Positions 7,348 to 10,543 of a stretch of 10,543 nt of DNA are shown here, piece by piece. A model generated the notes under the pieces. The model searched no databases. It was not told the origin of the DNA and saw nothing but the letters and a program-made list of their open reading frames with translations. The stretch comes from a virus. Each line of letters opens with the position of its first letter. Position 1 is the first letter of the stretch. Position numbers and translations under genes: made by a program. The stretch lies in the UHGV virus genome UHGV-0380619; one strand, written 5' to 3'.

Positions 7348-8201
7348 TTACGCACCTCCTTATGCTTTTCGTTCAGTTCCGAGTCCACCAGCCCGGCAAC
7401 GAATACACCATCGTTGATGTAGTCGTAGAGCGATGAAGCCAGCGGAGACTGAACTGAAACCAGCATCGGATAAAGTTGTTCTAACCAAACGCGGTGAATT
7501 TCAGCCATGTAGAGGTAAACAACGTGGGCATTGTGCGCGACACATGAAGTATCAACCTTTCCGATCAGCGCCTGTTCCATCTGGTTAAAGGCATTGATGT
7601 ATGCCTCTTTGAACTGGGCAGCACGTTTACCCGTGAAACCCATAGCAAGAAACGCAAAGCCATCGCGGGTTATTTGATAGCAAGGTAGTTTGCGAGTACC
7701 GCCGTTGGGCTGGCGTACCAAAATTGATGTCTCCGCAAAATTGCGGGCACAAAACTCTGGAGAACAATCCAAAATGCGAATCTTTTTCAGAACATCGTCA
7801 TGACGTTTAGAGAAGAAGTCAGCAACAGCCAAAGAAGATGTAACAGCCTGACCATCAACGATGGCAATTTCAGGTTGAGAGAGGGTTGGGAGAGTAGTCA
7901 TAGTGACAGCCCCGGTAGTCAGTTTTTTAGAAAACTCACCACATGGGACGCCAATCACAGAGGTGGTGAGACGTACAGGGTTGGCGTTACCGGAGACTAC
8001 CGAACCCGGCCCGACCGAAGTCGGCCCTGTACGCCCCACCATAATTTGGGCGTAGCAATGCTCATGACACGAAAAAACCGCATGAGCGCGGTTATGCTCA
8101 GTAATCAATTTCAGGACGCCAATCCCGGCAACGGATTTTGCCGCTGCCAGAACAATATAACGCCCAGAATTATCAGAATCAATCATTACTGGTTTGCTCA
8201 T
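7344..8201 (-). CDS. Rha-family phage regulatory protein with an unassigned ~100-aa N-terminal extension
   Basis: Rha-like core from about residue 101 (MTTLPTLSQPEIAIVDGQAVTSSLAVADFFSKRHDDVLKKIRILD...). ATG at 8201 preceded by AAGGGA; alternative internal start ATG at 7901. The N-terminal 100 aa have coding-like codon usage. Stop overlaps the O-like GTG start. Confidence 0.65.
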   Translation of the reverse strand: MSKPVMIDSDNSGRYIVLAAAKSVAGIGVLKLITEHNRAHAVFSCHEHCYAQIMVGRTGPTSVGPGSVVSGNANPVRLTTSVIGVPCGEFSKKLTTGAVTMTTLPTLSQPEIAIVDGQAVTSSLAVADFFSKRHDDVLKKIRILDCSPEFCARNFAETSILVRQPNGGTRKLPCYQITRDGFAFLAMGFTGKRAAQFKEAYINAFNQMEQALIGKVDTSCVAHNAHVVYLYMAEIHRVWLEQLYPMLVSVQSPLASSLYDYINDGVFVAGLVDSELNEKHKEVRK

Positions 8202-9368: not shown

Positions 9369-9465
9369 ATGCCCTCCAAACTAAGTTTTATTAGATGTTA
9401 ATTATCAATCTATCTTAGGTCAATAAAAACTAAGATTACTTAGTAATTAAAGAAATGGTGCTCCT
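9369..9465. promoter_or_regulatory. Immunity-region control region: three operator-like 18-bp sites plus candidate pR (and implied pRM)
   Basis: Sites AACTAAGTTTTATTAGAT (9379-9396), AACTAAGATTACTTAGTA (9428-9445) and a weaker reverse-orientation site ACCTAAGATAGATTGATA (9403-9420), with centres 24-25 bp apart. Candidate minus-strand pR: -35 TTGACC (9418-9423), 17-bp spacer, -10 TAACAT (9395-9400). Confidence 0.55.
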
Positions 9466-10092
9466 ATGGAAACGGTTGGTCAGCGTATAAAAGCTCTGAG
9501 AAGAGTTACCAGAACGTCCCAGAAAGAATTGGGTAAATTTTGTGGAGTAAGTGACGTTGCTGTGGGGTACTGGGAGAAAGACATCAATGTCCCTGGTGGG
9601 GAAGCACTTTCAAAATTAGCGAAGTTCTTCAATACGTCAATAGATTACATTCTTTATGGTGCGGAGTTTGAAGGCAAACTCGTCACAAACATGCGCAGAG
9701 TTCCTGTAATCTCGTGGGTTCAGGCTGGGCAGTTTACTGAGTGCAGGACAGCAGAAGTGTTTAGTGAAGTAGACAAGTGGGTAGATACATCATTAAAGAT
9801 TGGTGATAACTCATTTGCATTGGAGGTTAAAGGCGACTCCATGACTAACCCTAACGGCCTCCCAACAATACCAGAAGGCGCAACAGTGATTGTAGATCCT
9901 GATGCAGAACCCCGGCATGGAAAAATAGTCATCGCTAGACTTGATGGAACAAACGAAGCCACAGTAAAAAAATTAGTTATCGATGGCCCTCAAAAGTTTT
10001 TAGTGCCATTAAATCCCCGGTACCCCAACATCCCGATCAATGGTAATTGCCTCATCATTGGTGTAGTCAAAGGAGTTCAATACGAACTCTAG
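9466..10092 (+). CDS. cI: CI-type prophage repressor (HTH-XRE N-domain plus LexA-like S24 autopeptidase C-domain)
   Basis: 208-aa ORF. N-terminal HTH (QKELGKFCGVSDVAVGYWEKD). C-terminal S24 motifs: GDSM (Ser nucleophile) and VKKL (Lys), with a QAG candidate cleavage region. Confidence 0.9.
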   Translation: METVGQRIKALRRVTRTSQKELGKFCGVSDVAVGYWEKDINVPGGEALSKLAKFFNTSIDYILYGAEFEGKLVTNMRRVPVISWVQAGQFTECRTAEVFSEVDKWVDTSLKIGDNSFALEVKGDSMTNPNGLPTIPEGATVIVDPDAEPRHGKIVIARLDGTNEATVKKLVIDGPQKFLVPLNPRYPNIPINGNCLIIGVVKGVQYEL

Positions 10093-10112
10093 CCCCCCTT
10101 TTCTCTAACCAA

Positions 10113-10148
10113 AACACCGAACTAAGAAAAGTTTGGTGTTTTCTCTTG
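10113..10148 (+). terminator. Intrinsic terminator downstream of cI
   Basis: AACACCGAAC / GTTTGGTGTT stem (10113-10122 and 10131-10140, one G.U), 8-nt loop, followed by a T-rich run TTCTCTTG. Confidence 0.55.
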
Positions 10149-10180
10149 CCATCAAAACTAAGTTAAGTTAGATTTTATAT
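10146..10180 (+). promoter_or_regulatory. OL-like operator with candidate pL
   Basis: AACTAAGTTAAGTTAGAT at 10156-10173 shares the AACTAA-N6-TTAGAT pattern with the OR sites. Candidate -35 TTGCCA (10146-10151), 17-bp spacer, -10 TAGATT (10169-10174). Confidence 0.4.
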
Positions 10181-10281
10181 CAAAGATAACGAACAGGCAG
10201 GACGCCCACGAAGTAGCCGCCCGGGGCATATGAAGTCCAGGATGATTCGTTAGCAACAAAAAAGCGCCCTACAGGACGCTT

Positions 10282-10293
10282 AGCTCTTTAACA
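10282..10293 (+). promoter_or_regulatory. boxA-like antitermination element (GCTCTTTAACAA) downstream of the candidate pL
   Basis: 12/12 match to the rrn-type boxA core as recalled. A GC hairpin (about 10262-10279) lies immediately upstream rather than downstream. Confidence 0.35.
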
Positions 10294-10543
10294 ATCTTGG
10301 TATCCCCGTAACAAAAGAGGGTTCTATGGTCATATTCTGTGCTTACGTTCATCCTAATGGATTTTTTATCAGCACCAACCAACAAGACGAATTCTGGATT
10401 CTATGAACCGCCCCGGGTTTCCTGGAGAGTATTTTATCTGTGAACTCAGGCTGCCAGATCATCGTTTCCGATGGAAGCATAATAAGCTTTTTCTGCTTCT
10501 GCCGGAGGAGTATGGCCCAGCCTTTCCAGCAATCGTCGATTGT

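Follow-up and report, generated by a model that had tools for sequence, protein, structure and literature searches.

How lambdoid phages without N, among them SfV, ST64B, phiNP, LLS, e14 and many prophages, sustain early-left transcription is an unsettled question. SfII, SfV and SfIV have been reported to lack N, cII and cIII (SfIV genome analysis, PMC3851460), and for LLS, an N-less phage of the ST64B/phiNP kind, a 2025 genome paper only guesses at a put-like mechanism and identifies none (PMC12315714). The stretch of DNA analysed here, 10,543 nucleotides (nt) of the virus genome UHGV-0380619 (hereafter, the window), raises this question at its right end, where a boxA lies downstream of a candidate leftward early promoter (pL) and where a preliminary description made from the sequence alone tentatively placed a nutL and the beginning of an N-like early gene. 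We propose instead, with a probability of about one half, that positions 10146–10403 belong, as promoter-proximal leader, to the early-left (pL) operon of a lambdoid prophage of the e14/SfV/ST64B type, a group in which no N gene is detectable, and that this leader controls elongation independently of N, by means of a structured RNA, denoted R1, and a boxA for host Nus factors. Three signals are stacked in the leader (Table 1): R1, beginning at about +8 of the transcript; a hairpin with a T-run that is a terminator on the opposite strand; and boxA. Two of these, the covarying R1, which is also present in the K-12 prophage e14 upstream of ymfJ, and a boxA of ribosomal RNA operon (rrn) grade, are concrete, mutable candidates for the missing function.

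Table 1 Features of the early-left leader and its surroundings in the window.
Feature	Position	Strand	Basis or remark
cI-like LexA-family repressor	9466-10092	+	Peptidase_S24 and helix-turn-helix (HTH) domains
pL-like sigma70 promoter, TTGCCA-17-TAGATT	10146-10174	+	just 3' of the repressor gene, codirectional
Operator-like palindrome ACTAAGnnnnCTTAGT	10157-10172		overlaps the pL spacer and -10 element
R1, conserved structured RNA of ~62 nt	10189-10250	+	covariation in 88 copies, RNAalifold, covariance model
R1 helix P1	10189-10193 with 10246-10250	+	covariation
R1 hairpin P1a (3 base pairs, bp)	10196-10198 with 10204-10206	+	RNAalifold and loop-size variants
R1 helix P2	10220-10224 with 10237-10241	+	covariation
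R1 2-bp extension of P2	10218-10219 with 10243-10244	+	RNAalifold
Intrinsic terminator	10252-10281	-	stem 10281-10262 (AAGCGUCCUGUAGGGCGCUU), U-tail 10261-10252
boxA GCTCTTTAACAA	10283-10294	+	~100 nt downstream of the pL-like promoter; single copy in the window
26-amino-acid (aa) open reading frame (ORF)	10326-10406	+	non-coding truncated ORF; stop codon from IS629
IS629 (IS3 family), right end	10404-10543		96.6-99.3% identity to annotated IS629 copies

The candidate pL and its orientation, as given in the preliminary description, hold up because the promoter and the palindrome that overlaps it occupy the lambda-like pL position. At up to two mismatches, the palindrome ACTAAGnnnnCTTAGT has three matches in the window (9380, 9429 and 10157) where 0.22 are expected, a count equalled by none of 200 shuffled sequences, and the other two copies both sit between cro and cI. 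The promoter together with the palindrome, located after the cI-like gene, forms a pL-like promoter under repressor control. The transcription start is inferred at about 10181, and better promoters are found at the equivalent site in relatives, TTGACA-16-CATAAT in both SfV and the e14 prophage of K-12.

The secondary structure of R1 was computed from an ungapped alignment (A1) of 88 distinct copies. In helices P1 and P2, 98.1% of the alignment cells are paired, double changes occur in 8 of the 10 pairs and 225 cells are compensated; the pairing score is equalled in 0 of 500 shuffles, and slid controls reach at most 47%. RNAalifold independently recovers both helices, and mutual information picks up the pairs of P1 and P2 only, with no further pairs or pseudoknot. 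The loop of the small hairpin P1a varies (AGGAC, AAGGAAA, AGGGAAA, ACGGAUA) while its GGC/GCC stem is unchanged, and in mEp237, which also carries R1, the otherwise invariant closing pair of P2, C-G, is replaced by U-A, an extra compensated pair. More than 26 unpaired bases are invariant across phages with differing repressors, operators, first genes and host genera; the invariance of the core is partly imposed by the search pattern, whereas the AGGCA flank, the GGCRUAUGAA loop and the AUGA junction, all nearly invariant, are not. Helix P1 starts 14 nt past the -10 element in the window, and in the relatives inspected by eye the onset of R1 lies 13–16 nt past the -10 element. R1 is not a peptide gene because its internal AUG is not conserved: the mini-ORF AUGAAGUCCAGGAUGAUUCGUUAG was rejected as the conserved unit, given that the triplet varies (UAUG, UACG, UAAG, column 50) and that the changes are base-pair compensations.

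The window copy scores 90.8 bits with the R1 covariance model. It also carries the sole C.A mismatch at the second P2 pair among the 88 copies (C10222 with A10239; all others have U-A or a compensated pair), which, along with an IS629 insertion described below, suggests a decaying prophage.

By blastn, a stretch of about 60 nt after pL is conserved at 81–98% across phages of Shigella (SfV, SfII, SfIV), Salmonella (ST64B, SPN3UB, SEN34), Klebsiella, Citrobacter (phiNP), Yersinia, Pantoea and Pectobacterium (ZF40), such that the three Shigella phages reported to lack N all carry R1, SfIV with a boxA as well. A pattern scan of IMG/VR with a 21-nt core yielded at least 120 contigs, with 95 distinct versions among the matches listed. 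The covariance model places one copy in each locus, always on the side and strand of pL (50 loci and the window). Among species-representative genomes, it detects R1 in Enterobacterales only (Escherichia, Enterobacter, Leclercia, Kosakonia, Phytobacter, Pseudocitrobacter, Pantoea, Serratia, Rouxiella, Xenorhabdus and Photorhabdus); the matches to a 17-mer in high-GC phyla that came up in an all-genome scan are due to chance, only those in Enterobacterales having passed the model. Of 5,426 complete E. coli genomes, 1,518 (28%) contain R1, the match extending over the hairpin and boxA in 1,096, and none of the 12 E. coli matches listed is annotated as such.

Two copies stand out among these. The cryptic prophage e14 of K-12 has a somewhat degenerate R1 (74.6 bits), with one extra base and a changed P2 loop, between ymfK (cohE) and ymfJ (L254 6107-6183, - strand, which is about 1,202,106-1,202,182 of MG1655, NC_000913.3); it is unannotated in RefSeq and is a convenient experimental handle in K-12. 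The virulent, T5-like Providencia phage vB_PreS_PR1 has an R1 of 69.2 bits followed 9 nt later by the boxA GCTCTTTAAAA (L129 1497-1590, in the terminal repeat), with a sigma70-like promoter upstream, the module being located upstream of some small genes, which are followed in turn by the A2 DNA-transfer gene. Because PR1 has both elements, the R1-boxA module is not limited to temperate lambdoid phages.

R1 is apparently an undescribed, widespread structured RNA. No Rfam family covers it even at E-values up to 10, although this absence does not prove the point because put is missing from Rfam too, and a text search of the literature for the core sequence gave no match, figures not being text-searchable. 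R1 was also compared with put (polymerase utilization), the cis-acting antiterminator RNA of HK022 and HK639. We recovered HK022 putL from the genome, with numbering that agrees with the cryo-electron microscopy paper (PMC9378689), and the putL-like RNA of HK639 from its annotation. The R1 model misses both even with filters off, so that membership in a put family is rejected, and when the sequences are compared by eye, the two put RNAs resemble each other and not R1. The residues of put that contact the zinc-binding domain of the beta' subunit (CGGCAA 59-64, U28, G35) have no counterpart in R1, and R1 often has a boxA after it, whereas put needs no Nus factors. The likeness is one of circumstance: put is also a cis-acting RNA of about 60–75 nt, has its 5' end no more than a few bases from the pL start (PMC9378689), is carried by a lambdoid phage without a functional N, has many conserved unpaired bases and occurs in enterobacterial hosts only.

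The second signal on the transcribed strand, boxA, agrees at 12 of 12 bases with the core of the rrn boxA, UGCUCUUUAACAA. The lambda boxA, CGCUCUUA, is weaker than the full rrn-type boxA, the form present in the window. The perfect match that had been noted is real, its coordinates (10282-10293) being one base off, and at up to one mismatch 0.06 matches are expected by chance in the whole window. The segment GCTCTTTAACA at 10283-10293 conforms to GYTCTTTAANA, the functional gamma-proteobacterial boxA consensus derived by Baniulyte et al. (PMC5725501). Of 148 loci, 37 have this consensus on the + strand in the 150 nt downstream of R1 and none has it on the minus strand there, against a background of 12 matches in 2 x 1.43 Mb. 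Kati, vB_EcoM-689R6, SfIV, PhiR29 and others match the window from pL to 3–20 nt beyond boxA and then diverge fully. Thus, boxA is kept in related phage leaders, and the objection that it might not be conserved, which the preliminary description had raised against its own proposal, fails.

After R1, boxA recurs in four unrelated spacer contexts. Most of the 37 boxA-bearing loci share a common block consisting of an A-run, a hairpin and boxA; in Xenorhabdus ehlersii, Photorhabdus cinerea and PR1, boxA follows R1 (31, 59 and 9 nt later, respectively) with no hairpin. A Klebsiella phage shows the converse arrangement, with the hairpin-boxA block behind a pL-like promoter that is not followed by R1.

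The hairpin that precedes boxA in the window might be mistaken for a boxB of the rrn or lambda type on the + strand, a possibility that we rejected because both its stability and its G.U variants show selection on the minus strand. There, an 8-bp stem followed by UUUUUGUUGCU makes up an intrinsic terminator, and in 10 of 11 sequence variants the hairpin is much more stable on that strand (-7.4 to -12.8 kcal/mol) than on the + strand (-1.1 to -6.9 kcal/mol), two variants, L108 and L079, staying paired on the minus strand only, through G.U. In uninterrupted relatives, a 167-aa gene of phrog_3983 (E = 2.6e-59), which is encoded on the minus strand and has its own promoter-like site, meets its first downstream terminator in this hairpin. 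The matches to Phe_leader and other Rfam families near 10255-10334 are far under threshold and are produced by this terminator.

This slot after the pL leader is occupied in different lineages by differing convergent 'moron' genes (phrog_3983, phrog_5286) of unknown function, as at L003 5061-5564 (-) and L001 1053-1487 (-), and each of them uses the conserved minus-strand terminator beside boxA.

A census of terminators in 97 distinct loci, covering the 3.5 kb after R1, found strong co-directional ones in 9 loci and opposite-strand ones in 58, which implies that pL transcription often crosses convergent genes as untranslated antisense RNA. Leaders that carry boxA differ from the rest in this respect: a minus-strand ORF comes first downstream in 15 of 18 leaders with boxA compared with 21 of 79 without it (p = 1.3e-5; mechanical ORF calls in the 97 distinct loci, with no correction for shared ancestry).

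Could the boxA nevertheless belong to a lambda-type nutL, that is, boxA followed by boxB, serving an N-like antiterminator encoded just downstream? Its place 3' of pL, about 100 nt from the start, is where nutL is expected, and the cI-pL layout is that of lambda. However, the structured element lies 5' of boxA rather than 3', and boxB, the short GNRA-like hairpin of lambda, is absent: the segment 10283-10403 is no more stably folded than its shuffled versions (z = +0.70), consistent with the earlier remark that no clear boxB follows, and in the relatives no conserved sequence extends beyond the 3–20 nt past boxA. Nor is there an N protein to use such a site. None of 125 related loci has an Arg-rich first gene downstream of R1, or indeed a first gene conserved across them, and, as mentioned above, SfII, SfV and SfIV are reported without N. 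Both the nutL and the N-like gene therefore have to be given up, and we regard the lambda-type arrangement as extremely unlikely.

The three ORFs from which an N-like gene had been inferred are present as letters, but none is a gene or an N-like start. The last 140 nt of the window are the right end of an IS629 element, with nothing unusual about it: the terminal inverted repeat TGAACCGCCCCGGG begins at 10404, and the C-terminus of the OrfB transposase (...NRRLLERLGHTPPAEAEKAYYASIGNDDLAA*) is encoded on the minus strand from 10543 down to 10446, including the stop codon. Homology to uninterrupted prophages ends at 10403 (megablast against phages and the 5,426 complete E. coli genomes), the 14 best records spanning 9400-10403 at 95.2–99.5%, and the uninterrupted relative in E. 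coli O177:H21 (locus L003) reads ...GGATTCTA|CTTAGTAAGC across the insertion point. The TGA at 10404-10406 and the ATG at 10403 were accordingly made at the junction. The 26-aa ORF, which contains no arginine, ends at that TGA; its uninterrupted form in relatives is a 97-aa ORF that matches no Pfam or PHROG family and runs antisense to the real 167-aa phrog_3983 gene. The ORF from 10403, apart from its first A, and the entire ORF from 10512 lie within IS629, antisense to orfB. Thus, the candidate starts are by-products of the insertion or antisense ORFs without a family, and the practical upshot is that the apparent small genes of the window are insertion-sequence artefacts.

IS629 severs pL from its downstream operon in the window. 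The exact junction was not found in the 5,426 complete E. coli genomes, the species-representative genomes or the IMG/VR contigs searched. Judging from relatives, the insertion is 55 nt beyond the stop codon of the convergent phrog_3983 gene, within its 3' untranslated region.

With N and boxB gone, the leader can be compared to that of the rrn operons. The biochemistry of boxA is established: it recruits NusB and NusE and, with NusA, NusG and SuhB, protects the transcript from Rho. By this precedent, boxA on the nascent pL RNA would load the host NusB/NusE(S10)-NusA-NusG-SuhB complex, which would shield RNA polymerase from Rho across the untranslated antisense stretch between pL and the first early-left genes of this lineage. 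The rrn leader (boxB-boxA-boxC, with NusA/B/E/G, SuhB and S4) likewise has a structured element before boxA and needs no phage protein, and the role expected of boxA there is to shield untranslated RNA from Rho. Such a guarding role fits the pL leaders because those with boxA mostly precede convergent minus-strand ORFs. The differences are that no boxC was identified, that the hairpin preceding boxA is selected on the opposite strand and that R1 has no rrn counterpart. Binding of NusB/NusE at the boxA of the window, and the resulting change in termination, are predictions from the sequence.

For R1, we suspect that the partner is a conserved host component and not a phage protein because more than 26 unpaired bases are invariant across such different phages and hosts and because the RNA is also present in PR1; the lack of a consistent expression platform after R1, and of a conserved first gene or an Arg-rich protein downstream, also supports a host partner. 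By analogy with put, the elongation complex would be the most economical candidate, so that R1 might play the role of HK022 put with a different fold. In this form, R1 would represent a novel kind of cis-acting leader RNA, which renders the polymerase initiated at pL resistant to Rho and to pausing without any phage protein. It would serve as the equivalent of put in the very common N-less lambdoid phages of the e14/SfV/ST64B type and in at least one T5-like phage, and it may act either alone or with the Nus complex recruited by boxA. We put this forward tentatively. Read-through of intrinsic terminators, an argument for a put-like R1, was dropped after the census, and because so few co-directional terminators were found we lowered the put-like role to roughly one chance in three. 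Should R1 act on RNA polymerase, just one other kind of protein-free antiterminator RNA would be known from phages; if it does otherwise, it is still a widespread, unannotated structured RNA.

Several observations weigh against N-independent elongation control by R1 and boxA. On the side of R1, strong co-directional intrinsic terminators, which are present in so few of the loci, leave little of that kind for an antiterminator to overcome. R1 consists of nested helices, its closing stem enclosing both a small hairpin and a second one, whereas put has two tandem stems. Furthermore, the covariance model finds no second copy in the pR operon, in the 50 loci or in the window. On the side of boxA, three quarters of the R1 leaders do without it, so that the two elements are separable. 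In most leaders that have it, boxA and the minus-strand terminator travel as one block of about 50 nt, and its conservation could therefore be partly hitch-hiking. The association with convergent ORFs may be inflated by the shared ancestry for which it is not corrected. Finally, boxA can also favour Rho termination, as in suhB (PMC5725501; PMC12360218).

The last points lead to the alternative that boxA is not an antitermination signal in these leaders. It could be a passenger of the terminator block, as the joint inheritance of boxA, hairpin and A-run in most leaders would have it, or a negative element, in which case a Nus complex near the first ribosome-binding site would repress translation, promote Rho termination and damp early-left expression. 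The suhB leader and that of the ParE-like toxin gene of Citrobacter koseri are indeed precedents for a stand-alone consensus boxA in a messenger RNA (mRNA) leader other than that of rRNA (PMC5725501). The Nus complex promotes Rho termination in suhB; boxA is able to act either way, and Kati-type phages have the start of their first gene about 45 nt downstream of boxA, within the range described for the negative mode (PMC5725501). Against this alternative, boxA follows R1 in three unrelated contexts that lack the hairpin, each time on the transcribed strand, there is no credible gene start near boxA in the lineage of the window, and the association with convergent downstream ORFs fits protection better than repression. 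On balance, we consider a passenger or negative boxA unlikely.

R1, too, could work in other ways. One is a protein-binding leader, with a CsrA-type site or a site for a phage protein, that sets the stability or translation of the first pL mRNA. Many relatives have their first ribosome-binding site only 15–35 nt past R1, strong co-directional terminators are scarce downstream, and a GGA is found in every variant of the P1a loop, with GGAUGA at the P2/P1 junction. The first genes, however, are mutually unrelated and lie at distances between about 15 nt and over 1 kb; the second GGA is missing in the ZF40 type (AGAUGA); a CsrA site would leave the majority of the invariant bases (CCCACGAAGUAGCCGC, GGCRUAUGAA) unexplained; and no phage protein is common to all the loci or shared with the T5-like phage. 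A protein-binding leader of this kind appears rather unlikely. Another is a riboswitch or attenuator responding to some metabolite or signal. R1 does resemble an aptamer in that its helices vary while the junction and loop between them are highly conserved, but there is no conserved expression platform, the sequence after P1 is wholly different between phages, a + strand terminator is normally absent, the hairpin after R1 of the window is selected on the opposite strand, and no Rfam family matches. We hold this explanation to be very unlikely.

The remainder of the window agrees with the assignment to a lambdoid prophage. The genes on the minus strand are, from left to right, the lysis genes, three transfer RNAs (tRNAs), Q, DUF968, KilA-N, RusA, a methylase, PerC, a replication HTH protein, Rha, DUF4222, YmfL and Cro.

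Further RNA elements were detected in these prophages. The copies of R1 that are of the 'CCACC type' are followed by a conserved non-coding stretch (…AACGCGCAUCAGGUGUAAACGUUCCGCUGGCCGGCG…; L128 2440-2500, IMG/VR L028, L030, L150 and others), which is also found in the pL leader of the Klebsiella phage Kp4882-1, a phage that does not carry R1, and may be a further leader element. In the pR operon of the window, a C4 antisense RNA (7959-8046, - strand, 82.3 bits) adjoins isrK (8071-8147, - strand, 68.6 bits) next to the 5' portion of the Rha-family (antirepressor-like) gene, and SfV likewise has the C4 and isrK pair inside orf37 of its 'immunity region' (L004 813-1001). A strong match to STnc100 (1950-2149, - strand, 133 bits) is found just downstream of the three tRNA genes (2229-2475) but upstream of the holin gene, in the late-operon leader. 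A weaker STnc100-like element, of 36–39 bits and thus under the Rfam cut-off (L003 5688-5890, + strand; L004 3638-3853, + strand), fills a conserved non-coding gap of about 450 nt located upstream of yfdP within the pL operons of relatives, a gap conserved in 64 of the 125 loci, such that the late and pL operons may share related leader RNAs.

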